A stretch of DNA of 61,861 nucleotides, filler included, from Globobulimina sp. (taxonomy: Eukaryota), in the NCBI GenBank assembly GCA_003354225.1. It is 28 parts of 28 records of this genome, joined end to end, with 100 filler letters (N's around TTAATTAATTAA, not from the genome) between each part and the next. Parts side by side here need not be neighbours in the genome. Positions count along the whole stretch, not along the records: positions 30,997 to 33,109 come from PIVH01008888.1; 27 more parts are not named here. One strand, given 5' to 3'. The number at the start of each line of letters is the position of its first letter. Positions within the stretch are counted from its first letter, which is position 1. The notes below the pieces were generated by a model. It was given only the letters and a program-made list of their open reading frames with translations, was not told the origin of the DNA and made no database searches. The position numbers were made by a program, and so were the translations under genes. Shown here piece by piece: positions 8,859-48,183 of this stretch.

Positions 8859-10731
8859 CGTCACATATTATATGATGTTAATTGGAGTATCCACCGTATT
8901 TTTTTTCGAATCCTTCTATGTTCCGCTACCTTATGATGATCCCAACTATTATAAAGAAAGCATATTATTGCAAGCAGAGTCTATTCAAAGTGGGAAAGGT
9001 ATAATGAGTGGGAAATTATTTTTAGCGACTACACTTTGTTGGGTCCTGACATTTATTTGTGTACATAAAGGAGTCAAAACTGCCTCCACCGCTGTTAAAA
9101 TCACAATGCCTTTACCTTTCCTGTTGTTATTTATTTTATTGATTAAAGGACTGACACTGCCCGGTGCTGGTAAAGGAATTGCCGCATATTTAGATTTTAG
9201 TGATTGGTCTGAATTGGCTTCAGTAGGTATATGGAACGCAGCCATTGGACAATGCTTTTTTAGTTTGGGCGTTTGTATGGGTGTAATGACTGCGTTTGGT
9301 TCGTATAACCCCATAAAACAAGATATTGCTACGGATGAGAAAGTAATATCTTTTGTGGATTTATTAGCATCGCTTATGAGTGGTTTTGTTGTTTATTCTG
9401 TTTTGGGATATTTAGTGCATATAACTGGCGACACTGACTGGTACGATCAGGCATCGTTAGGATTGGTATTTGCTACACTTCCCGTCGCAATCACTACTTT
9501 TAAAGGAGCCAACTTCTTTGGGATAATATTTTATCTTTGTTTGGCATTATTAGGCATTGACTCTGCATTCTCGTTAATTGAGGCAATATCTACAGTCATA
9601 TTTGATAGTGATTTGAATAAATATAAATTAAAATTTACTCGACCAAGAATCACAGCAACAATGTGTATTTTTGGATTTTTTGGGAGTTGTTTATTCATTT
9701 TTGACACTGGCATATATTGGCTTGATATTGTTGATCGTTATGTTAATAACTATGGTATGGTTTTTATGGGTTTTTGTGAAACAGCGGCCTGTGGCTGGTG
9801 CTATGGCTACGAAGAGAAGATCAACGTAAAAATTGGTAAAGTTGCTGCAAATATATATAGAGTGGGTTTTTTAAGGTATTGTATATGTAGCAATGTTCAA
9901 ATTCTTTGCGTTGTAAGATAAAAAACAAATATTTTGTCGGCATTATTTTATTCTGAATGTACTAACTGTTTTACAGAAACATAATGTCGTCAAATATTTG
10001 CATTTTATTCGTTTTTCTTTTGTTATCTGTTGCCTACATTCAGTTCGATATTGTTGATGTGCGTATTATCCATTTGTTTACAATCTGTGTTTGACGCAGA
10101 TAGATTTTATATTGCATGGATCATTGGATTGTGTTTAGGTTTTGTAATATGGCTAAGTTCAATTGTTGCGTCATATTTTTATCGCAGTGAATATGCCAAA
10201 AATAATTTAACATTTTGTGAATTTCTGTGGTATCAAATTGGTTGGGAAAATGTGGAAATTTTGCGCGATTTTATTAATGAGAATGGCGTTGGAGAGGAAG
10301 AGTGGAATAATGAAAAACATACTTGTTTGGGTGAACTAAAGGCAGTGTATCATCATGGAACAATTGGTATTTATTTCGGATTCTATATAAAATATTTCAT
10401 TCCGATTGTTTTATTTTTAGTGCTAATACAAACAATGAGAAATGATACGATTAATCCATATGAAGGGTTTGCGTGGAAATATCTGTCAGTTGGAATTATT
10501 ATATTTAGTATAATGGTAATTGTTGTTGTTGTGGTTGCAATATTTCCACAGTCCATGACACAATCATGTGATGAAAATATTATTACACAAAAACAATCAG
10601 ATATCGAACATGATGGAGCAGTATTTTCGCCATTGGGACAAATGGATGATGAAATTACAGATGACAATGACGATGAAAATACAATACAAATGAGCAAGAA
10701 ACCTGATCCGCAAATCAACGGAGAATTATAA
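8859..10731 (+). CDS. SLC6/NSS sodium-dependent transporter, intron 9876-10043, 5'-partial
   Basis: GLTLPGAGKGI, WNAAIGQCFFSLG, FGSYN, GLVF, LGIDSAF, GIYWLDIVD motifs; GT-AG intron restores frame. Confidence 0.92.
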
Positions 10732-11073
10732 TTATATATTGAAGTAAAGAAAAATATATAAGACATTTGTTTTGAATGACATGTGTGTTTTTTTTGCTTT
10801 AATAAAAATTAAATTTTTATGTCAGTCCACAGATTTTTTCGAGCTCCAGTGAGAAAATCATTTCTAAGTCAGAAAAATAATCAGAAAAGTAAGAAAATCC
10901 TTTTTCAAACCAGAATTTGAAAACGCTGCAGCCTTGTATCAATACCAATCACTTCGCAGTTTTGTTAAGCACNNNNNNNNNNNNNNNNNNNNNNNNNNNN
11001 NNNNNNNNNNNNNNNNTTAATTAATTAANNNNNNNNNNNNNNNNNNNNNNNNNNNNNNNNNNNNNNNNNNNNA

Positions 11074-13186
11074 ATATCAGCCGGAGTATCAAGAGATGTG
11101 TTTGGAACATTTCCATTAAAAGGAAGACCATTAAATGTACGTGGTGTAGATGCCATCAAAATAATGAAAAATCAAGAAATATCAAACCTTAAAAAAATAT
11201 TAGGTTTAAAACAAGGATATAAATATACATCTTTATCATCATCAGAGGGACTTCGATATACTGGCTTAATCATACTTACAGATCAAGATTTTTTCGGATT
11301 CTCCATTAAAAATCTCATATTGAATATATTTCATGTATTCTGGCCAGAATTATTAAAACTTGGCTTCATTCATTTTGTTAATACACCAGTATTAAAAGCA
11401 ATAAGCAAAAAAGAAACGCATACATTTTATTCGATGCAAGCTTTTGAAAAATGGTCTGTTGTAAATGATGTAAAGAAATATCACATTAAGTTCTTTAAGG
11501 GATTGGGCGGACATGACAGCAAATCGGCAAAAGAAGCATTATCAAACATTGAAGATAAATTAATTAAATATACATTCACAACTGACAAGGATGACAAAGC
11601 TATGAAATTGGCATTTGACAAAAGTTTAGCAGATGACAGAAAACAATGGTTAATGAATTATGATCGCAATAATGTATTTGACCCAGTTGTCAGAAATCTT
11701 TCACTTGATGACAGTATTAATAAAGAATTAATTCATTTCTCAAAATATGATACCGCAATCGCAATACCAAGTGCTTTAGACGGTCTCAAAAATTCACAGA
11801 GAAAAATATTATATACTGGATTAAATTATGTAAAAGGCGAAACCAAGATCGCACGTCTCGCGGCAAAGATAAGTGAAGTCTCAGATTATCACCACGGTGA
11901 GAAATCATTAGAGAGTGCTCTAGTCGGTATGGCGCAAAACTTTGTTGCCAGTAATAATTGCAACTTGTTTGAACCATTAGGACAATTCGGAACACGTATT
12001 ATGGGTGGAAAAGATTTTGCGAGTTCTCGATATATATTCACGGAATTAAGTAAAATTACGAAAAAAATATTTAGAGATTCAGACTCTGTTCTTTTAGAAA
12101 GAAATATGTCAGATGATAATGACCCAATTGAACCTCGGTTTTATGCACCATGTATTCCAGTAATATTAATTAATGGAGCTCGTGGTATTGGAACTGGTTT
12201 CTCAACAAGTATATTACCGCATAGTGTTGAAGATGTTGTTAATGCAGTTAAAGATAAATTAAATAATAAAAAAGCAAAAAAATTACAACCACATTATCGC
12301 GGATTTAGAGGAGAAATTAACCCGGCTGAATCAAAAAAATATATCGCATCTGGCGCATATACAATTGATGAACCAAAAAACACAATAATTGTAACTGAAT
12401 TACCACCAGGTGTATGGACTGAGACTTATAAACAATATATTGAAACCCTAATTATTGATAGAAGCGCAGATAAAAAATTACAAAAGAAACAATTTATTAA
12501 GAACTACTTAAATTATTCATCGGAAAAAACCGTACGATTTGAAATTGAAGTTGAAAAGAAAATCTTTAAAGAATTAATGAAAAAGAAATCTACAATTACA
12601 AAATTGCTAAAATTAGAAACATCATTATCCGAAACAAACATGTATCTGTTTTATAAAGATGACAAAATCAGAAAATTTAAATCGGCAAATGAAATATTAG
12701 ATTATCATTATGCGATTAGATTACATTATTATGAATTACGAAAACAAAATATGATTAAAACATTATCAGCAAAAGTCACCGAATTAAAAAATAAATCTCG
12801 ATATATCAAGAGCGTAAATTCAGAAGAAATTAAACTACTTAGACAAACCGAAGAAAAATTAATTGCACAATTAGAAAAAGCCAAATTTGTAAAAATTAGT
12901 AACAATAAAGGAGTATTATCATATGACTATTTATTAGATATGAGACAACGTGCATTAACAATGAAATATGCAAATAAACTTGAAAGCGATTATAAAGAAT
13001 TAAATAAACAATTAGATGCATTAAAACGAAAAGATATTAAGGATATGTGGAGAGAAGATTTAGATGAAATCTTAATAGAAAATGAAAAATATAATGATAA
13101 ATTAACACATGATATGGAAGAAGAATTAAAGGAACAAGGAAAAGGTAAAAAAACAAAGAAAGCAGCTAAAAAAATTAGAAAAGTAC
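11074..13186 (+). CDS. TOP2: type IIA DNA topoisomerase (TOPRIM to C-gate), 5'-partial, giant-virus-like
   Basis: FPLKG, LRY, TDQD, KGLG, DGLKNSQRK, YHHGE, catalytic SSRYIFT, GIGTGFST; intronless and very AT-rich. Confidence 0.93.
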
Positions 13187-13286
13187 NNNNNNNNNNNNNN
13201 NNNNNNNNNNNNNNNNNNNNNNNNNNNNNNTTAATTAATTAANNNNNNNNNNNNNNNNNNNNNNNNNNNNNNNNNNNNNNNNNNNN

Positions 13287-13428
13287 GAGCAAGCCGCGAA
13301 CACCGCAAAAATCTACGGCCAGTCACGCCTCAATGGCGATGGCGTGATCGCAAAAGACGCCACTGACCTCCCGGAACTACAGCAACTGATCGCCGAGATC
13401 ATGGATTGCCTCGGAGCCGAAACGGACG
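13287..13428 (+). other. foreign GC-rich coding fragment, probably bacterial, fused to NOL10
   Basis: reads EQAANTAKIYGQSRLNGDGVIAKDATDLPELQQLIAEIMDCLGAETD in a different frame from NOL10, with no splice junction. Confidence 0.5.
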
Positions 13429-15013
13429 AAGATGCTCTGTGGTGCTACGAGACCACCGATGGATGGAATTCCATACTCGACACGGCAGACATTACAATTT
13501 GCGAATGCCGGTGATTGGGACTTGTATGGCTTACAACCGACCAATGTGCGAATTGTACACTGGCACCATAAAGAACATTGTGTTGCGCGCCAACCTGGAA
13601 CAGGGCCGTTACTATGCTCCGTTGGAAACTTCCTTGGATTATATCACGAGCTGCGATACGGATCGGACGCATTTACTGACTGCCTTTGGCGACGCAAACG
13701 GTGTGATCGAATGCTGGGATCCCAGGCATAATGCATGCATTGCCAAATTGGACATATACGATTCCATTCCGTCGCTATCGCCCGTTCCGAGTGTGACCAA
13801 ACTGAGATTCGGCACTGATGGGCTGACGTTGGGCGTGGGTCTCAGCGACGGCCATTTGGGCATTTATGACTTGCGGCGGCTGAAACCTTTGCATGTCCTG
13901 AGCCATCGCAACAAATTGCCGGTGGTCGACATTGCGTATCACCAACAAAGCAGTAAGATCATAAGTTGCGATGCGCGAACTATCAGATACTGGGAGCAGG
14001 CCACCGGAAAGCTGTACACTGTCATCACGCCGGCGGAGCGGGTCAATAATGTGGCAGTGGTGGAGAATTCTGGCGTTATCTTTGTGGCTCAGGAACAGCA
14101 TCGGATTGGTGCCTATTATGTGCCGTCGGTGGGGATCGCACCGAAATGGTGTCCCTTTTTGGACGGAATGACGGAGGAATTGGAGGAAAGCAAATATAAA
14201 TCCATTTACATCGATTATAAGTTTGTGTCTCGCGACGAATTGGAGGCGTTGGGCATGGAACATTTGATTGGAACTAACATTTTGAAGGCGTACATGCACG
14301 GATTCTTTATGGATATTAAGTTGTATCGGCGAGTCCGCAGCATTGTGGATCCCGATGCTTATGACAAATTTCTGAAAGCCAAAACTGAGCAAAAAGTGGC
14401 CATGCAAAGAGTTGGCAGAATTAAGGTCAAAGGAAAGTTGCCGAATGTTAACAAAAGTTACGCCAATTTCTTGTTGAAGACAAAAGGCCAGGAAAAGGAT
14501 ACTATGCTGAATCCATTGGTGGATCCTCGATTTAATTCGATGTTTAAAGACAAGGATTATCAGATTGACTTCGCCAATGATAAATATTTGCGGAATCACC
14601 CTGAGATTAAATATGCAATGCACCAGATTAAGTATCAGGAATTGGTGGGAGACAGCGTGGAGACGATGGAGGCCGATAAAAAGGACGAGTTTGATCGGGA
14701 TATTGAGGCGGATGACATTATGGTTAGCGGAGAACATAAGAATATCACTTATGATGATAAGTTTTTGCGTGCAAATGAGAATACGAGCACTATGAACAAT
14801 GATTATACGAAAGAAACCCGATTGCCAGTCTTGCTGGAGAGTGATCAGAGTGATGATGAGGATATGGATCAGGACATGGATGGCGTTCAGGATTTCATTA
14901 CGGTTGAGGAGGATGAGGTTGTTGATGAAGAGGATGAAAATGAGGCAAGTTGGGATGAAGGAATGGCAGATTTTAGCAAATTAAGACGATTGGATGTTGA
15001 AAATGTAAATTAA
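13429..15013 (+). CDS. NOL10: nucleolar protein 10 (Enp2), WD40 protein, 5'-partial
   Basis: EFHT..G.HY..RMP, NLEQGRY, GIAPKWCPFLDGMTEELEE, DYKFVS, LKAYMHGFF, DPRF..MF. Confidence 0.92.
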
Positions 15014-15125
15014 ATTATGATACACTTGATTGATTGATATTGTTTGTACTGAATCTTTAATTAATTGAGTTAACGTGATACTTATAAGTTTTTTTAATTA
15101 ATGAAAAACGTACTTTGGTTGGTTC

Positions 15126-15400
15126 ATGGATTCCACACAAGAAACAGCAGCATTGACGGAGCCATATATTATTGAAGCAGACCAAAAGCCAAAAGAAACA
15201 AGCAATGAATTTGAATCCTCTGAAGAAGCAACATCACCATTAATTGCTGGCTCATGTTCAAGATCTCCATTAATACCAATCGATTTAAATGAGCGTGAAA
15301 CCAGATTGACATTATGGTCCATTGCATATTTCATATTTTGTATTTGTGAATTTAGTGCCAATGCAATCTTAGCCGATGAAAACAGTATTTCTCCAAAATC
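15126..15400 (+). CDS. N-terminus of a membrane protein, 3'-partial
   Basis: acidic N-terminus then a hydrophobic helix; runs into the linker. Confidence 0.4.
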
Positions 15401-15581
15401 NNNNNNNNNNNNNNNNNNNNNNNNNNNNNNNNNNNNNNNNNNNNTTAATTAATTAANNNNNNNNNNNNNNNNNNNNNNNNNNNNNNNNNNNNNNNNNNNN
15501 TTTATAAAGTATTTTATCCTCGCACATACGTAAAGTCAACATTAGAACTCTGTATGCGATATAAAAAAAACTTACTAAAAA

Positions 15582-17504
15582 ATGGGAACTTGTGCAAATA
15601 TAAAAAAGAGAAACTTTAATACCAATGCCAAAATTGTAAATGATGAACAAATAGAAAAATGTCAAATATATGCCATTGGTCGCAAACAATCTAAAAAGTG
15701 TCAAACATTCCAAACATTGACACCAAATTATCATCTCAAAAACAAAAATATAACCAATATATATTGTACTTTGAACCAAAACATTTACAGTAGTGGTAAT
15801 AAACAATTTTGGTTTGATCGCTCCAAAAGAATTGAACAAATTTTGTACTTTGAACAAAATAACATTGAAATAACCAAAGTGATCACACAGTCATTCTCTG
15901 ATAAAATATATTGGATTTCAAAGAGTAACATGGTTTATCATCAGCAAAACAATAAATTTCAACAAATTCCTGACATTTTTGATGTAATAGATATTCAACA
16001 ACAAACAAAAGTGATCCACGAATTGCATAGAAATAAAGTACGGTTTCAATCATTACAGACATTTTGTTATTGCCTATGCAATCACAGTATGAGCATACAA
16101 TTAATAATAAATAATTGGCACTTTGACCCAATACCAAATGAGATATTGCGCCAAATCATAAATTATCACGGGAATGCGAATGAAATTTACATTCAAACAA
16201 ATAGTCAACAGCATGAATGGAAGAAAGTGGCATTTTTCAGAGATAAACAAATCACCAAAATAGTATCTGGTCGGAGTTATACTCTGTTTCTAGATTCGGT
16301 CGGTGTTGTTTGGTGCAGCTACAATCCACAAAGAATAAAAAAAATAGATTTATCAAATCAAAATAGTTGGCCTTATAATCCAATCAAAATGGTTGATGTG
16401 CTGCGTAGCAAAGATGATGTCTATGAATGTGGTCTTGCTTTGGATGCTAATCACAATATTTACCAATTCAAAAAAAGTAAGAAAGCAGTTTTAGTTCTAA
16501 ATATGAAGCGATATAAAATTATTCAAATACAATGTGGATCAAACCATTTCTATGCGAAAACTGAAGATAATAAACATTTTCTTTGGGGAGGAAATAAATT
16601 CAATCAATGCATAACGAATGAATCAGATAATATAAATTCTCCTTATTGCATCAACCAAGCAGTCTACGAGCAAACTAATGGAGGAATCATAAAATCAGTG
16701 TTTTTGGGTGATTATAGTACAGAAATTATCCTTTGTAATAAGGAACTTGGTGAGGATATATTTATGGATCCAATCTGCGGCGCTGACATTTATGTTTCTG
16801 CAGTTGAGATGGATGCAGTGGTAAAATTGATAGTAACTTGGAATAAGCACTCCGTGCCAATATGTTGCCTCTCAGATAAAGTTATAGCTGATTATCATCA
16901 TCGAATTGAACGTGTCGTTCATAATAGATTTGGATTGGGATCATTTGGGAAGTTTAAGATTAGAGGAATATGTCGAGAGACAATGATGATTGATATGGCT
17001 TTGGGGAATACATTGTATAAATTAGAAGAACAGATTAAAATTAAAGTAAAGTATAATGAGAATAATGTCGAAGTTATGGATTACTATCAACTACAAACAT
17101 TAAATGATATATTTGTGAAATACGCAAAAATCGTGCCATCGGACGTACATATTTATTTGAATGGGAACTCGTTTATTTATGATATAAATGATATAAATAA
17201 ATCCTTGGATGAAATAGGAGTATCTCACGGTTCATTAATTTTTGTTAAAAATGTTGTTTTGGAGAATGAGCGGTGTTGTCAATTTGTTAAAGGTCTTGAT
17301 GGTAAGACGGAAATATACGATGTCAATCTAAATTGGAAGGTGTTTGATTATAAATATTTGATATATAAAAAACATGGAATTCCGATTGATTTGATAAGAT
17401 TGATATGCTGTGGAAAACAATTAGCGGACGGCTACATTTTATCGGATTATGGAATTCAAAACGAATCAACGTCTCATTTGGTACTTAGAAATCGAGGATC
17501 TTAA
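15582..17504 (+). CDS. RCC1-repeat protein with F-box-like insert and C-terminal ubiquitin-like domain(s)
   Basis: [35 protein letters not shown]-terminal FVKGLDGKT...[40 protein letters not shown]. Confidence 0.8.
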
Positions 17505-17716
17505 ACAATTGTATTTCGATTAATTTACTTGTCATCTTTTACATAATTTTTTGTTGTTGGTCTTTATCGATATATTCCAAAAGATACCATGTCGATAAGT
17601 TGTTTACATTTGGTNNNNNNNNNNNNNNNNNNNNNNNNNNNNNNNNNNNNNNNNNNNNTTAATTAATTAANNNNNNNNNNNNNNNNNNNNNNNNNNNNNN
17701 NNNNNNNNNNNNNNCC

Positions 17717-18818
17717 ATTGCAAAGCAAAAAGCTGAGCAACAGGAAAAGAAACTGAATGAATCGAGAGCTGACAAAGCGATTGAAATATCAATCAACTTT
17801 GGCCAGGGACATGCAGTGAAAATCAATGAGGTTAAAGATGGCCGCAAACAGTATGTGTTTGACTCTATCGATCGAGAAAGAGCGGCAAATCCAAAGGAAA
17901 AGAATGGAGCAGGAATGCAAAGTGGATAGCAACCATCAAAAACATCAGAGCGTGTATCATAACTCTTCATTGACGGGCAACGCATCCAAGATTTATGCCT
18001 CTTTGCAGAAGATGCTCGACGCCGAAAAGGAGAAAGCTAAAAATATCAAGAATAAGCTGGAAAGCGACACTGCAAAGAACGGAGACTGCGCAGTGAGTCA
18101 ATTAAAGGACAAATTCGTGCAAGAAGCAAACAGCGACATTGAGGACGAGGATGAGAAAAAAGCAGTGTTGTATTTGTCTAAAAAGCAGCAAAATAAAAAC
18201 TTTGGCAAGAAGCTGAACAAAAAGGCGCGATATAAGGACAGCAGCGACCATGGCGTCTGTTTGTCAATGCATCAGCCGTGGGCCAGTTTGCTTGTGTCCG
18301 GCATCAAAAGAGTGGAGGGACGCAGCTGGAGCACGCAGTATCGAGGGCGGCTATGGATTGCCTCGGCGAGAAGGGAGCCGACGCCGTTTGAAATTGAACA
18401 GGTTGAGCAGGAATATTGCTGTGTTTATAGTATGGATAAGAATGACATTCCGTTTCCAAAAGAATATCCGACCACAGCGCTGCTGGGTTGTGTGGATGTG
18501 ATCGACTGTTTGGCCAATGAGCAATATCAAGAGCGATATATAAAGAATGGACTGTCGGATGAAAATAATTCCTCTGCGTATTGTTTTATTTGCGAGAATC
18601 AAAGGAAATTAATATTGCCTGGCGCTATCAGCGGGGAACATAAGTTATGGAAAATGCCGTTTGAACGCATAAAATCTATGCAATCTGGATTGATACCATG
18701 CGATTTGTCATGGCAAACGGTAACGGTTAGGGATAATGGTAGGAATCGGAAGGGATTGGAAAATGATGATGACGAAAGACTGCAAAAGGTTATTGCGGAT
18801 TCCTTGCAACAACAATGA
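17717..18818 (+). CDS. ASCH-domain protein (ASC-1/TRIP4-like), with a frameshift or short intron near 17851-17896
   Basis: CLSMHQPWASLLVSGIKRVEGRSW..YRGRLWIAS, FPKEYPT..LLGCVDV, GEHKLWK. Confidence 0.85.
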
Positions 18819-19031
18819 TTTAATTGTCTTTTTTTTAACTCCACGGTAACTTTCAAAACCACCCGTTTGATTCGCCTGCAATGTTTTCTTCAAAAATCTT
18901 TAGTAACATTTAAATCCTTAAATGACAGCTATGGAATAAATTATAATGTACAATTCTGATGATTTGATATTGCGACGTCATACACATATTATCAAGACGT
19001 ATATTATGAGATATTTTTTCCTACAAAAAAA

Positions 19032-19828
19032 ATGTCAACCACAAAATCTCTGCATATAAATACAACCACTTCCTTTGATAAATTGGAGAAAGATTTTGAG
19101 AGAGTATTAAATGAATTAATTTCAGATAAATCGTTAGAAAAATTCCGTGGAGAATATGAGAAATTGCATAGTGCGCTGCAGCGATCGCATGGCAATGAGA
19201 AAAAATTAATTGTAAAATGCCGTGAATTAAATGAAGAATTAGTGTCAAATGCGTCAAAAGTCGGTAAAGCAATGCAATTATCGTCAGAGGACCAAAATAG
19301 TATCGCTTTATTAAAAAACGAGATTGATAAAGCATGGAAAATGGTGGATTCAGCACAAGAAAAAGAGAAAAAGGCTAAACAAACGATCCAAAGCTTGCGT
19401 GCAGAAATACAAAATTTAGCAAAATTAATTGAAAAAGGCGCAGGTTTGAATATTGGACAAGAATCGACAGTCAATGAATTACTGCGAATCAAAGAGGAAT
19501 TGACGAAAGAGGCTGAAAATAATGATAAACAAATCGAATTGCAACAAAAAGAAATAACAGATTTACATTCCGAATTGGTTGCAAATGAAGACAATAAAAC
19601 CAAATTCGAATCCAAAATCAAAGAATTAAACAAATCATTAACTAAAACAAAACAAGACTTATCTCGATATTCACGAAAATCGCAAAGATCTGAAAAACAA
19701 TTAATTGAAATAAATAAACATTTGGACGAAAATAAATTAATTGCAAAGCAGCAAAATGCAGCAATTTTTGCTAAAGACAATGAAATAAATAATTATAAAA
19801 ATATTTTGAAAATAAAAGATGACAAAAT
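19032..19828 (+). CDS. CFAP58: cilia- and flagella-associated protein 58, 3'-partial
   Basis: LEKDFERVLNELISDKSLEKFRGEYEKLH...KCRELN...EIDKAWKMVD coiled coil. Confidence 0.85.
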
Positions 19829-20022
19829 NNNNNNNNNNNNNNNNNNNNNNNNNNNNNNNNNNNNNNNNNNNNTTAATTAATTAANNNNNNNNNNNNNNNN
19901 NNNNNNNNNNNNNNNNNNNNNNNNNNNNTTTTATTTCAGAAAACATCATCTGAAATAATCCAGGAAATTATCTGACTATTAAGTTAATTTGTATTTCAGA
20001 AATTCCTCTTTTTTGTATGTAA

Positions 20023-20587
20023 TCAAAAAAACTTAAAATATAATAATTGGTTGAACAGCATTTCCGCAGTGTCAACGTCTTGAATTTGATACGCAGAATG
20101 AAACAATGAATACAAAACGGTTCTCAATGTTTGAATGTTTGACAGTTGTAAATGTTGCGGACATAGTTTGCAAATTTGAGTCATTCTTTCATAAAATAGT
20201 TTTGGTGTTTTTGTGCGCAATGCAAGAGGTTGTAAAAATTGAATCATTTGTTCGTTTGTGATTTTATGCCATTGGATATTCTTTCTTTCCATTAGAAGTG
20301 CGTCTAAAATGGCAGTATCATTGCAATACAATAATGTATTGTCGACATATCTTAATTGTGACAGATTAATGTAATGATGGAACCTATTATTAGTTGAATA
20401 AACAAAGATAAACAAAAATTGAATGATAAAATGTGTTGATAACATGTTTGTTTAATAGCAGTATAACGATGGTCGATAATTTATTAATGTTGTTTGCACT
20501 CTTTAAATGTTTTTTAGTTGAAATCACTCTGTGACTCTGACACTGGATAATCATGTTTAGAAATAATGAAAAAGTTGGTTTAATCAT
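20023..20587 (-). CDS. hypothetical helical protein in two overlapping ORFs (intron or frameshift)
   Basis: ORFs 20390-20587 and 20023-20445; no motif recognised. Confidence 0.3.
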
Positions 20588-30896: not shown

Positions 30897-31330
30897 NNNN
30901 NNNNNNNNNNNNNNNNNNNNNNNNNNNNNNNNNNNNNNNNTTAATTAATTAANNNNNNNNNNNNNNNNNNNNNNNNNNNNNNNNNNNNNNNNNNNNATGT
31001 ACAACAATATCATGAGGGGCATAATGTGTTGGATACATTGAAGGATTAAAGTAGTATTTGAGCTTTGTGAAAGAATGTACTCTTTTATGAATGAAAATCC
31101 TTTAACTTCTTAGTGAATCGCGAGTCCCTTAAACTATATTTGCAATCAGGCAACAAATCAGATAATTGACATGATCGATATTCCAAAGCTGGTAAAGCAA
31201 CAAAAAGCAATTTGATGACATGAGGTGGATGCTGCAATCGATGGCAGTTCCCATAAACCATTGACAACTATATTTCACTGCATTAAATACAAAATGAAAG
31301 ATGATTACTAGACAACAGCAAATATGAAAT

Positions 31331-31583
31331 GACTCAGTAGCTCAATGATAGAGCGTGTGTCTGCAGTTTCGGCTGTTCCACCCAACAAAAACTCAACATT
31401 GATTTTTTCAAACAATCCATTATGATTATTGAAAAAATTGGTTTGTATTTGCAGTAATAATACGACATTATATTGCAATGCAAATTAATTTCTAAACTCA
31501 TTGTTGCTCAACATAGAGATGCTCCAAATTAAATGTTATGGTTATAACTCACATGAATGTAGGTTTGAGTCCTACCTGAGTCA
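31331..31583 (+). ncRNA. tRNA-like element with a 183-nt structured insert after CTGCAG ('maxi' copy 1)
   Basis: acceptor GACTCAG/CTGAGTC-A, D stem GCTC/GAGC, T arm GTAGG TTTGAGT CCTAC; paralog at 45370-45571. Confidence 0.8.
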
Positions 31584-32435
31584 GCATTGTAAAATTCTTC
31601 TTTTGCACATACCATCCTCCAACCCGTTTAAATCGCAAATTAAAAACGCCATTTTAGAGTAGAGCACAGCTGCATGCTGTCCTCTTTTTGTGCATAATCA
31701 CCAGTAGTATCATCTGTATCAATCTGAATCAATCTGACCGTCGTCGGACCAAGATTTAATTTGCGTGAACGATTAGGGCTTTCCGATAAGTACTGAAAAT
31801 TTCTGCTGTTCAAAAACGTTTTCAGTTCTTTTCCCTGTTTTCGTCAAAAGTTATGGTTTAAAATAAAAGAATTATACAAAGACATTGCTATTCGATCCTG
31901 ATTTGAATACAATTATTTAGAAAAGGAATTGAGTGGCAATCCACCACTCACCACTGCAATATTGGAAATAAGAGATTTGAGTGGCAATCAACAGCCACAA
32001 TCTCACAAAAACGATTTTTTAATATGATATTATTATTAAAATAGAATTTGATGGTTATTATACCATCACAAAATACGCAAACATATTATGTTTATTGTGT
32101 TACTCATGTAATTTAATGGAATTTTATGGTTATTTTGCCATCACAGACAACACAATGAAATACATTAATTGTATATTTATTATTTAATTGTATAATTTTG
32201 GATGAACATATAATAGCATCGACAACAGAGTTAGTTTTGTTAATTTATTGATGGGCAATGATGTCGATATTGTAAAGAGAGTTGGAAATGAATTGGAAGA
32301 TATGATGCGATTATACGACAAATATGGCAATAATTTGAATAAAAATATGTTAGATTTGAATATATCGAGTTAATATATATTTTTTTCACACAATATAATA
32401 TAGGCAGTATAGAGAGTGGCAAGATAATTGCAAAC

Positions 32436-32581: not shown

Positions 32582-32645
32582 TGTGATGATTGGGATTTTA
32601 ACCCAAATATTCTTCAATAAGACGCTCTCTTTGAGCTATCATCAC
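32582..32645 (-). ncRNA. 64-nt tRNA-like element with stub anticodon arm ('mini' copy 2)
   Basis: GTGATGA TA GCTC AAAGA GAGC G TCTT ATTG AAGA ATAT TTGGG TTAAAAT CCCAA TCATCAC A. Confidence 0.75.
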
Positions 32646-32704
32646 AAGAAGATATTTGTAGGTGGCAGCTGTCACGGCGCTATGGCCACGCTTGATTTGT
32701 CCAC

Positions 32705-33109
32705 GGCGCTACGTACCGTAATAAATGCCATCGGTACGTATTGGAGGCGCCGTACCATCATTAATAGCATCGATTGGCGGCGCCGTACCATCATAAATCC
32801 CATCGGTACGCATTGGAGATGCCGTACCGTAATAAATACCATCGGCACGCATTGGCGGCGCCGTACCATCATTAATAGCATCGATTGGTGGCGCCGTACC
32901 ATCATAAATAATATCGGTACGCATTGGTGGCGCCGTACCATCATAAATAATATCGGTACGCATTGGTGGCGGCGTACCATCATAAATCATATCGGTACGC
33001 ATTGGTGGCGCCGTACCATCATAAATAATATCGGCACGCATTGAGGGCGCCGTACCATCATAAATCATATCGGTACGCTTTGGCGGCGCCGTACCATCAT
33101 TAATAGCAT
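32705..33109. repeat. GC-rich tandem array of 39-nt and 33-nt units (about 10.5 copies, runs off the contig)
   Basis: consensus GGCGCCGTACCATCATAAATAATATCGGTACGCATTGGT; minus frame reads (DGTAPPMRTDIIY)n. Confidence 0.92.
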
Positions 33110-44170: not shown

Positions 44171-45369
44171 NNNNNNNNNNNNNNNNNNNNNNNNNNNNNN
44201 NNNNNNNNNNNNNNTTAATTAATTAANNNNNNNNNNNNNNNNNNNNNNNNNNNNNNNNNNNNNNNNNNNNATGTATAAATATACATCAATATTATGCAGT
44301 TTAAAACAAGAAGAAAGCTGCAAGTGATATTAACTTGAGACAAAACATATTTGGATTGGTTTGCGTCAACATCATTCCTTATTAACACCTCTTTCCAAAT
44401 ATGCAATATTAAGATACTCAGTAGTTATCATCTTACTTTCTTCTTTTTTTTTCGATTACAATGATGAATCAAAAAAAGATAACAATTATTTGCATTTTGT
44501 GTTTCTCAATAGTGAATAGGCATAAATTTATGATTGACTCAAAAAGGCACCATTTGTGCTCAAGGATGCAGCTATCGGAATAAATCAGACAATTTAAAGA
44601 TGTTGCGCAAAAACGTTTTAGTAAACTAGTTGTAGTGATATCGGAAAAAACACAAAAATCAATAAAAAATAGAAATAATAATCTAATCTCCTTCAGAATG
44701 TGGAGAGAGGTAGCTAAGGACAGCTATATGATGAGAAATAAATTGCTCACACACAAGTGTCTATAGCGCGATCATCGAAATGCATCCATCAATTTCAAAA
44801 GCGATAGAAATAATGAATAAACATTCAAAAGCGGTGTATTTAGAATGATAAAATCATTCCGTACGTAGCCTCACGCTCAACAGAGCTCTGCTCACTATCA
44901 ACGATATAAATATCTTTCTTCATCATCAGGAGTTTTTAGGGGGTTGTTTCGAAGACTTGTGATTAAGAATATTTCCTATAGAAATGATCCTGTACAAGTA
45001 TTTCCTTAAAGAATAATATTTTCTCATTTGCTAACTCCACTTTCCTGCCATTCCCATCAAATATCTATAATTAAATTCCATGCAAATCAATTCCATTTAT
45101 GGTACGGTAGGTACCGGTATTATATCCAATTCAGTTCAGTTCAGTTCCAATCACAATTAAATAACTCACTTAATGCTGCTCCATCTGATCTGATCTGATC
45201 GATCTATTATGTGTGTTTCAGTGTTGAGTGTGCCATGAGTGCCATGCTCAGATCAGATGAATTTAATTTAATGTTTGACTGTTTTGTTTTTGAGTAAAAA
45301 ATAAATGTACGAACACAAAACACAAATTTAATTACAAATTGTTGATGCAAAAAAAAATAAACTTTGTGT

Positions 45370-45571
45370 TGACTCAGATAGGATTCAAACCTATATCTAT
45401 GTGGACTATACCAACAACATTTGGTTGTGTATTATATTTAAGGTGTTGGCAAACAAATTGCTTTTAAACTTGGTTTAGTTTAATTTTATCATATTGAGAA
45501 AAGGTTGGTTGTTGGGGGGGGACACAGCCGAAGCTGCAGACACACGCTCTATCAAATTGAGCTACTGAGTC
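45370..45571 (-). ncRNA. tRNA-like element with a 130-nt structured insert after CTGCAG ('maxi' copy 2)
   Basis: same acceptor and D stems as 31331; T arm ATAGG TTTGAAT CCTAT; long T-run about 12 nt downstream. Confidence 0.8.
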
Positions 45572-46190
45572 TTGTATATTGCTTGTGCTTAACATAATTA
45601 TTTGCGCTATATATGTTGCTATCGAATGGCACACAAATATTTATGGTATGCACAGTCGATCTGCTACATTCTCACTGTTAATATATTAAATTAATTATAA
45701 AATATGTAATATATATTTAATATTTGCAATTGATTCATTATAAAATAAAAATGTATTATAAATTAAATTAAAACGGATTGAGAAACGAATTTGATTGTTA
45801 TTGTTTACTATGAATACTAGTAGTACTAAATTGAGAGGCAGCAATATATGATATCAATATCATTGATATGAATGCGTACGTTGTGTAACTGTAACAACAA
45901 TAAAATTATATGTACATCATGAATTAATTCCATGTGGCTCCAGTTGAATGACGTCATTTTATTCTATGCTATTCATGTGAGCGATGAATATAATTAAGTT
46001 GAATGAGTCATGCCTTGCAAATTGGTTTGTGATTGTTTCTGATGTTTGAAGTGTGACTTAAGTGAAAACCTAGAAACATTACATTTTACTGCATTGGATG
46101 ACATTTAATAATTGTTTAATATTTGATTGCTTTATTGGTGGTGTTGAAAAACACCTGGTAAAAAATAAAAAAAGTAATTAATTTATTGAT

Positions 46191-46382
46191 TTATTGTGCA
46201 TATTTGTTGACTGCTTTGCTTGCCTCAGTTTCAGCATGTTTTGATAGCTCGCCTGGGAGTACTAATTTGCAGGCACACTGAACTGCTCTTGCGTCCATTG
46301 TGGCTTTTTTATTATATTTGACAATATTGGAGGCTTCGGCTGCGATCCGATCAAATGTGTCATGCACAAATCCATTCATTAC
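46191..46382 (-). CDS. H2B: histone H2B C-terminal part
   Basis: MNGFVHDTFDRIAAEAS...LVLPGELSKHA..EASKAV.KY. Confidence 0.92.
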   Translation of the reverse strand, partial: VMNGFVHDTFDRIAAEASNIVKYNKKATMDARAVQCACKLVLPGELSKHAETEASKAVNKYAQ

Positions 46383-46482: not shown

Positions 46483-48183
46483 CAAATTCAAATAAATCTC
46501 GAAAAGGGAATTTTTCAAAGTTATGTACAACTTACCAAACTTTAAATCTCCAGGAAAAGATGGAGTAAATGGTTTTGTAACGAAAATGGCTTTGCCCATA
46601 ATTGGTGACATGCTATATAAAATTTTCAATCTGTCACTAAAAACTGGTATTTTCCCAGATGTTTGGAAGGAATCTGTTATTATCCCAATCCACAAGTCAG
46701 GATCTCTTGGTGAACCTGCAAACCACCGTCCTATCTCATTGCTCCCTCTATCTGGAAAAGCATTAGAAAGATTTGCCTATGAACAATTATACAACCATGT
46801 CATAAATTATGTGAATCCCCAGCAGTTTGGATTTTTACGAGGACGTTCAACTGAAACTGCAATTCTTAAAATTACAGATGCAATTTACTCAGCCATTCAA
46901 AGTAAACATCTTACATCATTGGTCCTTTTGGATATGTCTAGGGCGTTTGATTGCGTCAATCATGAAATTCTAATTGCCAAACTGGAGCAGTATGGAATTG
47001 CTGGCTCTGAACTCCTTTGGTTTAAGTCATACCTCTCAAATCGAAAACAAACTGTCAGAATGGGAACTCAGACATCACCACTTCTCCATGTATCGACGGG
47101 TGTACCCCAAGGGTCAGTTTTGGGCCCTTTGTTGTTCCTTATCTACATAAATGATTTGCCTAGAATAGTCAAGAATTGTGAATGTACTATGTTTGCCGAT
47201 GACATCCAACTTCGATTTGCTTTTCGCCCTGATAATGTACAAAATGCTTATGATCAAATTCAGTCAGACCTAAATGATATTGCTGTTTGGTGCATGAACA
47301 ATTGCCTAAAAATTAATTCTACCAAATCACAGGTGGTAACAGTTGGGACAAGCCAAAATCGGCGACTGTTAAACAATGTCCCAGATCTGACACTTTCAAA
47401 TGAAAGATTAATATGTGTACCTGAAGCCAAAAACCTTGGTGTGATATTTGACGAAAATATGAACTTTTTTGCGCATCTAAAATCTGTGTCAAAACGATGC
47501 AAAAGTGACTTATTTGCAATAAGCCGTGTAAAGGACTGTATACCTCGAAAAATTCTTATTCAAACAATTGAAACAACTGTCTTTTCGAAACTATATTATG
47601 CTGCCTCTGTAATCCATGCAGCTCCTGTGTCATATGTGGATCAAACCATGCTTCGAGTGGTTAATTATGCAGCAAAAATGGTTTACGGCCTTAGAAAATA
47701 TGATCATGCCACTGAATGTAGAAACAAACTTCATTGGAAAGATGCCACAACTGAACTCAAATATCGAACCCAACTGATGGCCTATAAATTATTTATCGAT
47801 CATAATCCAGTCGGACAATTGACTTTCAGCAATTGCAGGCGTTCAAGCCGATTGAACCGAGTACCGAAATTTGAGATACCATCCTTCACAACTGGTGCAG
47901 CCAAAAGAGCATTCAGTTACAGAGCTCCATTATTGTTAAATGAACTTTGTGAAATTTTAGATGTAAACTGTTCCTCGCCCATATGCTATTCCAAATTTAA
48001 ATCACCATTGAAAAGGTTTTATGACAGTTAATTTTATTCTAGTCTTATAATTTTGGTATGTAACTGTATATGTATATGTAATGTGTCACTTCCCTTGTGT
48101 CATGATTCATTATTCTCATAATTAACCATGTGACTAGTTAACGCTATATCACTTGGGAAGTATAAAACTTGAAACTTAAACTT
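46483..48183 (+). mobile_element. non-LTR retrotransposon (CR1/L2 group) 3' half: RT ORF 46523-48031, 3' UTR and AAACTT(G) tail
   Basis: HRPISLL, QFGF, LDMSRAFD, GVPQGSVLGPLLFLIYINDL, FADD, KNLGV; in-frame TAA at 46493-46495 suggests an inactive copy. Confidence 0.93.

Follow-up and report, generated by a model that had tools for sequence, protein, structure and literature searches.

What kind of gene keeps the whole frame of a tRNA and opens its anticodon loop to a long insert? The question is raised by a stretch of 61,861 nucleotides from Globobulimina sp. (assembly GCA_003354225.1), analysed here at its full length and hereafter called the window, in which two loci, at 31331-31583 on the plus strand (copy 1) and at 45370-45571 on the minus strand (copy 2), each keep the tRNA frame intact and carry a long insert behind position 37. 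Since the window consists of 28 separate contigs (2111-2115 nt each, 27-44% G+C) joined by N44-TTAATTAATTAA-N44 spacers, the two copies lie on unrelated contigs, as a first-pass annotation of this DNA had stated. Two 16-mers, GACTCAGTAGCTCAAT and CTGCAGYTTCGGCTGT, occur twice each in the window (expected 0.28 and 0.25 times), and only at these copies. The reading that we favour, with a confidence a little short of even, is that the loci encode a small tRNA-shaped RNA that does not decode, is a product of RNA polymerase III (Pol III) and retains its insert.

The tRNA frame itself is largely as the first-pass annotation had described it. Both copies have the 7-bp acceptor stem GACTCAG/CTGAGTC, the 4-bp D stem GCTC/GAGC and a discriminator A73; their 5-bp T stems differ by a compensatory change (GTAGG/CCTAC in copy 1, ATAGG/CCTAT in copy 2), their D loops (AATGATA and AATTTGATA) contain GA and lack GG, and their T loops (TTTGAGT and TTTGAAT) contain TTTGA. 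In standard numbering both carry U8, A9 and G26, and bases 32 to 37 read C32, U33, G34, C35, A36 and G37, followed by the insert and then by position 38. Some details had to be corrected. The 3' boundary of the insert in copy 1 had been placed at 31549, 2 nt too far, and for that reason the variable loop had been given as 3 nt; it is a normal loop of 5 nt (TGAAT). The anticodon stem, given as TGTGT/ACATG, is UGUG/CACA in both copies, followed by a fifth pair, 31-39, that is U.U or U.C (in copy 1 the mismatch U31.U39). Copy 1 thus divides into a 5' exon-like part at 31331-31366 (acceptor 5' strand, D arm, 5' strand of the anticodon stem and CTGCAG at 32-37), an insert of 181 nt at 31367-31547, which has a T6 run at 31403-31408, and a 3' exon-like part at 31548-31583 (C38, U39, CACA, TGAAT, the T arm GTAGG-TTTGAGT-CCTAC, the acceptor 3' strand and A73). 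The corresponding parts of copy 2, on the minus strand, lie at 45534-45571 (38 nt), 45406-45533 (128 nt) and 45370-45405 (with the T arm ATAGG-TTTGAAT-CCTAT and A73). R1, a small covariance model of the 5' exon and the hairpin that follows it, scores copies 1 and 2 at 81.2 and 85.9 bits.

Standard tRNA finders, proposed as a check in the first-pass annotation, gave a divided answer. ARAGORN in default mode called no gene in the window; with introns allowed it placed a gene in six of ten elements of this kind (four tRNA-Cys(gca), one Thr(cgt), one Ile(tat)), setting the insert at five different offsets among the six calls. The Rfam tRNA model (RF00005, gathering threshold 29 bits) accepted five of eight elements at 35.6-44.9 bits, among them copy 2 at 42.1 bits with an insert read as 131 nt, and left copy 1, L002 and L003a unreported.

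The two copies belong to a real, multi-copy family, as had been claimed. Ten further full members were found in metagenome contigs and in contaminant contigs of metagenome-assembled genomes (MAGs), making twelve in all: W1 and W2 (the window copies), L009, L011, L012, L013, L001, L002, L003a, L003b (L003:107-329), L062 (L062:16-212) and L002b (L002:1115-1334). Four more members (L005, L020, L021, L061) are cut by contig ends, and L004 and L006 keep the 5' exon and hairpin and lack the 3' exon. An exact-pattern scan of metagenome contigs returned six loci and a scan of prokaryotic genome contigs nine; four of the latter (L009, L011, L012, L013) are short AT-rich contigs in a single MAG record (G001), and the other five were set aside as chance matches in bacterial DNA. 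Searching G001 by BLAST and with R1 gave six and seven places, including the divergent type L061/L062, while R1 run over all collected loci revealed one further divergent type, L002b. A scan of viral contigs with the 5'-exon pattern gave no match. The members fall into an AT-rich group (the window copies, the small G001 contigs and L004-L006) and a second lineage of about 45-49% G+C (L001-L003). Compared with the GCA type, L062 has compensated changes in two acceptor pairs, one D-stem pair and three hairpin pairs, plus a one-sided change in the hairpin; because its upstream box, TATA-like element and a T11 run are kept, its sequence is not that of a decaying copy.

Covariation supports the proposed structure throughout. 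In an alignment of 11 members (A4) covering 26 pairs of the frame and hairpin, 96.5% of the 286 pair cells hold standard pairs, and 12 of the 26 pairs have changed on both sides, against 2.9 +/- 1.2 in shuffled alignments, none of which (0/500) reached 12. When partners were slid by one to three columns, at most two pairs changed on both sides; a 10-member alignment had given seven such pairs against 1.7 in shuffles. The two-sided changes are spread over the acceptor (3), D stem (1), anticodon stem (1), hairpin (3) and T stem (4), the last being represented by GTAGG/CCTAC, ATAGG/CCTAT, GTCGG/CCGAC, GCCGG/CCGGC, GTGAG/CTCAC and GTGGG/CCTGC, with GCAGG/CCTGC in partial copies and ACAGG/CCTGT in L002b. 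Acceptor, D and T stems are fully paired in the 11 members. The anticodon stem has 4 bp, with 31-39 unpaired (U.U or U.C) in 10 of the 11 and U.U also in L002b, that is, unpaired in 11 of the 12 full members. C32 and U33 are invariant, and the core tertiary partners read from the alignment are U8-A14, A15-U48, C13-G22-G46 and U12-A23-A9. The elbow is less regular: the A19-U56 covariation put forward in the first-pass annotation is seen in the six AT-rich GCA full copies, whereas A19 faces C56 in L001, L002 and L003a, and the pair is G-C in L003b and U-A in L062; the T loop of L003a is CTCATAT, and the D loop of L005 has no G. The structural constraint that had been postulated is thus borne out by shuffle-tested covariation, and, judged by these compensated changes, frame and hairpin have been kept by selection.

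The insert, too, has a recognizable architecture. It measures 117-181 nt in all members, and its ends are conserved between the two lineages despite their differing G+C, whereas the middle varies between subfamilies and is not conserved. The end elements listed at the outset, a hairpin GCAG(Y)-TTCG-GCTGT, a C-run and CCAACA with TGTT(R)TGG, are present in both window copies. In this hairpin (hairpin A; 31363-31376 in copy 1, with predicted pair probabilities of 0.92-0.96, and 45524-45537 on the minus strand in copy 2, where it reads GCAGC-TTCG-GCTGT) G34 (in a G.U pair), bases 35 to 37 and the first base of the insert pair with insert bases just past the UUCG loop, GCTGT in copy 1, and the pairs covary in relatives. 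The loop is UUUCAU in L003b, UGCG in L062 and a UCU triloop in L002b. Bases 34 to 37 are predicted to be paired, with probabilities of 0.61-1.0, in all ten members tested. Farther in, a C-rich strand of the CCCAACAAC type is predicted to form a long-range helix with GUUGUUGGG-like bases near the 3' end of the insert. In copy 2 it joins CCAACAAC (45515-45508) to GTTGTTGG (45418-45411) over 8 bp at -11.4 kcal/mol, and in copy 1, where the closing strand TGTTATGGT and the linker TATAA occupy 31534-31547, it is weak. Its two strands covary elsewhere (GCCCCUCGA/UCGAAGAGGGC in L003b, CCACAA/UUGUGG in L005 and L020, CACUUGA/UCAAGUG in L002b). A conserved linker of AYARUY type (UAUAA, UAUAG, UACAA, AUACAA or GAUAG; TATAG at 45410-45406 in copy 2) leads to position 38. 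No Rfam family was found over the insert in the window at E <= 0.5, nor in L001, L003, L016 and L018 at E <= 1. Signal recognition particle (SRP) RNA was rejected as an identity, a separate SRP RNA gene adjoining the element in L001, and RNase P/MRP RNA, telomerase RNA and box C/D or H/ACA small nucleolar RNA (snoRNA) were rejected by eye, there being no boxes common to all members and no conserved middle.

Could such a gene be decoded as a tRNA once the insert is removed? The triplet at 34-36 is GCA in nine full and three partial members, GCG in L003b, AUG in L062 and GUG in L002b, and its partners in the hairpin compensate each change (GCGGC/GCCGU, AUGAC-UGCG-GUCAU and GUGUCC/GGACAU, respectively). 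To our knowledge, GCG and AUG are not normal anticodons in eukaryotes. The identity of tRNA-Cys requires U73; A73 is present in 10 of the 12 full members, and among the nine with GCA position 73 is A in seven, G in L012 and T in L013. The objection that A73 misfits tRNA-Cys, raised in the first-pass annotation, therefore stands. In animals, according to PMC6614914, the helix between anticodon and intron joins bases 32-37 of the exon to the 3' portion of the intron; its proximal pair, C32 with a G of the intron, is conserved and adjoins an invariant bulge of 3 nt located at the 3' cut site. This pair, C32:G(-3), is absent from the six members checked, W1, W2, L001, L003b, L062 and L002b, where the base at -3 reads U, U, C, U, C and U in that order. 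A tRNA-Tyr(GUA) gene from the same AT-rich contig set (L031:518-603) served as control: its 11-nt intron, read at 37/38, has G at -3 and hence C32:G(-3), although ARAGORN gives this gene another parse. In the same six members the partner of the anticodon is the insert's 5' end and not its 3' end, so that the would-be cut sites are not brought together and no motif resembling a bulge-helix-bulge forms. The insert parses as 37/38 in all 12 full members, as would any loop insert behind CUNNNR. With A73, a triplet that varies among paralogues and no canonical anticodon-intron pair, these are not ordinary tRNA-Cys genes, as had been suspected.

The flanks suggest how the genes may be expressed. A box of the pattern [TC][AC]CCAT[AG]A, counted within 120 nt upstream, precedes all eight intact AT-rich members (at -70 to -94) and all three U3 genes (at -93 to -97), and is absent from the truncated L004 and L006 (0/2), from the second lineage (0/5) and from ten other odd tRNA-like genes, described below. 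Two of nine ordinary tRNA genes have it, both tRNA-Ala(CGC) with an unusual ATCGAAA T loop. In copy 1 the box is TCCCATAAAC (31249-31258, plus strand, about -82), with TATATTT read from the sequence at 31269-31275; in copy 2 it is TACCATAAAT (45639-45648, minus strand, at -77), with TATATAG at 45613-45607. When copy 2 was aligned with L009, L011, L012 and L013, flanks included, the five shared a block from about -95 to -45 (TACCATAAAT, 25 nt, TATATAG), the neighbouring upstream DNA having diverged. Its function as a promoter is suggested by conservation. T-runs of T4-T14 follow the genes, in agreement with the Pol III type proposed for them: T9 in copy 2, a candidate terminator 12 nt after the gene (45349-45357, minus strand), T7-T14 at the same place in L009, L011, L012 and L013, and T9, T8, T7, T10, T14 and T11 behind genes of the family at large; copy 1 has just T4 after the gene (31601-31604). 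The AT-rich members thus carry a box, a TATA-like element at a fixed distance and a T-run, the make-up of a putative Pol III promoter of the small nuclear RNA (snRNA) type. In the second lineage no upstream block is common to all five members, L001 and L002 sharing only 27 nt at about -85 to -59. As a separate observation, the tRNA-Ala(CGC) genes (L020:1270-1342, L049:969-1041, L053:54-126) have G3.U70 and an initiator-like T loop, ATCGAAA (A54/A60), and the two with enough upstream sequence both show a TCCCATAA box and TATATAT 35 nt downstream, as in the long-insert family and U3.

Gene neighbourhood is conserved within each lineage. On the contig of copy 2 the order is histone H2B 3' end, histone stem-loop, element and U3, the U3-like snoRNA gene lying at 44890-45007 on the minus strand with its own TACCATAAAT box at 45104-45095; the unit of element and U3 recurs in L011, L012 and L013, so that U3 is linked to a long-insert gene in four contigs. 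In L001 the order is SRP RNA (1-155), element, tRNA-Arg(CCG) (521-593), tRNA-Sec(UCA) (608-693) and U2 snRNA (822-989), and the same core cluster is found in L002 and L003. Spacers of 14-19 nt, free of T-runs, separate the tRNA-type genes of this lineage; on these grounds element, tRNA-Arg and tRNA-Sec are probably transcribed as one polycistron.

Taken together, these features can be assembled into a mechanism. In the AT-rich lineage transcription would start from the upstream box and TATA-like element, of the kind that also precedes U3 snoRNA genes; in the second lineage the gene would be a cistron within a tRNA polycistron. Because transcription would end at a T-run, the polymerase is most likely Pol III. 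The whole L-shaped frame (acceptor, D arm, T arm, elbow 19-56 and core triples), presumably kept by selection, would serve as a handle for RNase P, for RNase Z and CCA addition, and for tRNA-binding proteins. The anticodon loop would be replaced by a three-way junction, in which bases 34-37 are locked with the first insert bases in a UNCG-capped hairpin, the long-range helix closes the variable middle and the AYARUY linker returns into the 4-bp anticodon stem. With the insert retained, codons could not be read, and the conserved junction would be the working part. Against a plain decoding tRNA it speaks that the triplets vary and are in part illegitimate, that A73 accompanies GCA, that 31-39 is mismatched, that the proximal pair is absent although an internal positive control has it, that the elbow of the GCA type is degenerate and that the insert ends are conserved. 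We therefore lean, while conceding that the chance lies just below one half, towards a class of eukaryotic small RNA, probably foraminiferal or rhizarian, that is an L-shaped, end-processed tRNA mimic with its anticodon loop replaced by a conserved three-way junction. With the same weight, again not quite an even bet, this class would be previously undescribed, would be expressed from snRNA-type promoters or within tRNA polycistrons, would have split into several paralogous types, and would work on the machinery of translation or tRNA handling while not decoding itself. The tRNA scaffold used as carrier or mimic, one of the options named in the first-pass annotation, agrees with this reading.

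Several observations weigh against it. The splicing rules applied above come from animals and yeast and may differ in foraminifera; the insert sits exactly at the eukaryotic tRNA intron site; C32 and U33 never vary; and two of the triplets, GCA and GUG, are legitimate as anticodons (Cys and His). No ordinary Cys or His tRNA gene was found in the examined contigs of either lineage, a very small sample. Hairpin A has a predicted probability of 0.07 in L002b, and in duplex predictions the long-range helix is clear in six of ten members, weaker alternatives appearing in four. Many rows of the alignments are close relatives, so that independent events are fewer than the cell counts imply. The box, found also before tRNA-Ala(CGC) genes, does not separate tRNA genes from those of other RNAs and is for that reason neutral between non-decoding and decoding readings. 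The close spacing of the second-lineage genes, free of T-runs, is repeated at L002b, which lies 14 nt behind tRNA-Gly(CCC) with no T-run between. Retention of the insert in the RNA, finally, is an inference.

The main rival, to which we give roughly one chance in four, is that these are true decoding tRNAs (tRNA-Cys(GCA), tRNA-His(GUG) and others) with very long structured introns at 37/38, cut by the splicing endonuclease, whose conserved ends would be splicing or folding signals. It draws on the canonical frame with its core tertiary partners, on the canonical position of the insert, on the Rfam tRNA scores of five of eight elements and the tRNA-Cys(gca) calls in four of ten, and on the position of the genes in tRNA polycistrons (element-Arg(CCG)-Sec; Gly(CCC)-L002b), as with real tRNAs. 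L002b looks as a tRNA-His should: its triplet is GUG, it carries A73 and a G at -1, and its D and T loops contain GG and TTCGA, respectively. No ordinary Cys or His gene turned up in the small sample of contigs. What tells against this rival is that A73 occurs with GCA, that some members have GCG or AUG, that 31-39 is mismatched in 11 of 12 members, and that C32:G(-3) and the 3-nt bulge are lacking in a lineage in which the intron of tRNA-Tyr possesses both. Anticodon pairing involves the 5' end of the insert, leaving the two cut sites unjuxtaposed; G19 is gone in all GCA-type copies, the T loop of L003a is CTCATAT, the D loop of L005 has no G, and copy 1 carries a T6 run inside the gene. Another rival is a processing cassette, in which the excised insert, possibly circularised like the tRNA intronic circular RNAs (tricRNAs), would be the product and the ligated exons a by-product with an anticodon free to drift. 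Drift of the triplet with compensation, conserved insert ends and closing helix, and the precedent of animal tRNA introns that form stable circles (PMC4536317 and PMC6614914) fit this idea. We nevertheless think it improbable: the proximal pair and bulge-helix-bulge-like motif are missing, pairing at the 5' end weakens the case for circular introns, excision would destroy hairpin A, the best conserved part of the insert, and the middle, its supposed payload, is the least conserved.

A selfish tRNA-derived repeat, akin to a short interspersed nuclear element (SINE) or spreading at the DNA level, whose structure is kept only for transcription or mobilisation, has to be considered in the light of copy number. 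In sequencing run X1 the summed contig depth reaches 854-1607 for the 5' exon with its hairpin, against 69-154 in the remainder of copy 1 and 5-17 in the flanks; such sums are not copy numbers, and X1 and a second run, X2, are contigs whose library kind is not on record and which say nothing on transcripts. In X2, from another organism, the copy-1 insert recurs at depth, with 0-3 differences per contig piece of 62-139 nt; its flanks differ there, those of copy 1 having no cover. The truncated L004 and L006, the many tRNA-shaped repeats with aberrant anticodon arms in the same contig set and a reverse-transcriptase frame in the window point the same way. The element has no A-tail, as the first-pass annotation had observed, nor a tail like that of long interspersed nuclear elements, and no target-site duplication (no flanking direct repeat in copy 1). 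It stops at the tRNA 3' end and keeps its B-box half there, unlike SINE heads; a tRNA-derived SINE is unlikely. Retroposition would not carry a non-transcribed upstream box, so that its retention in 8/8 intact AT-rich members, across at least three subfamilies with otherwise unrelated upstream DNA, counts against such an origin, as do the conserved gene order with SRP RNA, tRNA-Arg, tRNA-Sec, U2 or U3 and the compensatory changes in every helix. The mobile-element option of the first-pass annotation is accordingly unlikely, and for a selfish repeat as a whole we would allow only a slim chance; the rest of the weight falls on something else. A role as primer for a retroelement was also considered and dropped, since the window contains no further sequence that could pair with the 3' end extended by CCA.

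Among known systems, intron-containing tRNA genes and tricRNAs (such as Drosophila tRNA-Tyr) share with the family a full tRNA frame, an insert after position 37, anticodon-insert pairing, Pol III T-runs and multiple copies. The family differs in the size of its insert (117-181 nt, against 11 nt in the tRNA-Tyr of the same lineage), in its anticodon pairing, which takes place in a local UNCG hairpin and uses the insert's 5' end instead of the 3' end, and in a triplet that varies (GCA, GCG, AUG, GUG), with A73 accompanying GCA. It also lacks C32:G(-3) and the 3-nt bulge, a rule taken from PMC6614914. A second likeness, on the favoured reading of the family as a non-decoding mimic, is to other L-shaped RNAs. 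The mascRNA cut from MALAT1 and the bacterial YrlA are L-shaped tRNA mimics that do not decode and are handled by tRNA-processing enzymes. The first, of about 58-61 nt, has its anticodon arm shortened and is released from a transcript made by Pol II; the second has the opposite topology, its termini lying in the non-tRNA stem. Unlike either, the family gene stands alone, its termini are tRNA termini and its anticodon loop is expanded into a three-way junction.

The promoter-like elements invite comparison with genes such as those of U3, U6 and tRNA-Sec, which are snRNA-type genes with an upstream element. The box of the family may resemble the Dictyostelium upstream sequence element (DUSE) and the upstream sequence element (USE) consensus of plants. 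Like snRNA-type genes, the family has a short C-rich upstream box and a TATA-like element at a fixed distance, common to U3 of the same contigs, and a T-run after the gene; it departs from them in that the box, to which a function is ascribed from its conservation, is also found before tRNA-Ala(CGC) and is absent from the five second-lineage members. Noncoding RNA genes of Dictyostelium have a DUSE about 60 nt upstream (PMC7919456). Likeness to tRNA-derived SINEs extends to tRNA relationship, multiple copies and A- and B-box-like sequences, and ends with the lack of tail and target-site duplication, with tRNA halves that flank the insert instead of forming a head, with covarying helices and with the upstream box. 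Vault RNAs, transcribed by Pol III, carry tRNA-like A and B boxes close to both of their ends, have termini that pair and vary in the middle, traits that the family appears to share as a putative Pol III product. A complete cloverleaf, with its D, T and anticodon stems and the elbow pair, is kept by the family and not by vault RNAs, and Rfam gave no sequence match.

Other tRNA-like genes occur in the same DNA. 'Mini' genes of 64 nt at 2228-2291 and 32582-32645 (both minus strand), with others at L050:756-819, L054:87-150 and L059:541-614, have the acceptor stem GTGATGA/TCATCAC, A73, normal D and T arms, an anticodon arm of just 12 nt and a T-run directly behind; they score 45.7 and 47.3 bits under the Rfam tRNA model, none is called by ARAGORN, they have no upstream box, and homology between copies stops at the element ends. 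Their summed contig depth in X1 is 9522-20445, against 5-17 nearby, from which this family is taken to be very high-copy. Contigs L051, L052 and L058, L055, L056 and L057, and L060 of G001 hold genes whose acceptor, D and T arms are intact and whose anticodon arms are aberrant, with loops of 8-9 nt, with a 9-nt loop on an 8-bp stem that a GGAATGGA satellite follows, or with a 13-nt loop. Judging by these loci, the lineage seems rich in anticodon-disabled tRNA look-alikes.

As for the source of the DNA, the open reading frames (ORFs) of the window are long, with a few gaps of about 60 nt, and its gene content points to a eukaryote: an ORF with a reverse-transcriptase domain, the 3' end of a histone H2B frame together with a histone stem-loop, and a snoRNA resembling U3. 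The first is a 511-aa open frame at 46496-48031 (plus strand; RVT_1, 111.8 bits), probably a fragment of a retrotransposon lacking long terminal repeats. The histone 3' stem-loop at 46116-46160 (minus strand), which at 31.2 bits falls slightly short of the threshold of 34, immediately follows the 3' end of the H2B-like ORF at 46191-46379 (minus strand; Pfam Histone, E 5.9e-4), and the U3-like gene at 44890-45007 has a conserved box A region (GGATCATTTCTATAG) and scores 27.9 bits, under the Rfam threshold. A tandem repeat with a period of about 74 nt, seen in self-BLAST offsets, occupies 32704-33109, at the end of the contig of copy 1. At 11073-13186 an intron-free topoisomerase II ORF (704 aa) fills a contig of 29% G+C; in a protein search its best relatives were metagenome proteins of about 1100-1200 aa with 52-56% identity. 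Topoisomerases II of that length have the size typical of giant-virus enzymes, and the assembly may accordingly include giant-virus DNA. The accession series of the L005 and G001 records belongs, according to PMC6783311, to unassigned contigs and bins of the metagenome of Globobulimina, a foraminifer, and hence we infer that the AT-rich group is probably foraminiferal host DNA.

No description of such genes came up in the open-access literature under the terms tried. The family, small and well defined, seems to represent a kind of small RNA not described before, from protists that have been little studied, its nearest known counterparts being long-intron tRNAs with their tricRNAs and tRNA mimics such as mascRNA. 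The RNA biology of Retaria is almost unknown, and the mitochondrial genomes of this group lack tRNA genes (PMC13746701), which is a motive for a closer look at nuclear tRNA-like genes and not evidence of a link. Most copies escape standard tRNA finders, so that genome annotations would lack them whichever way the insert is handled. If it is spliced, it would rank among the longest nuclear tRNA introns and its architecture would break the rule of a proximal pair that holds for the splicing endonuclease of eukaryotes, an exception informative on how the enzyme recognises substrates. If it is retained, the family would constitute a conserved and abundant eukaryotic tRNA mimic with its own promoter, and a new use of the tRNA fold.

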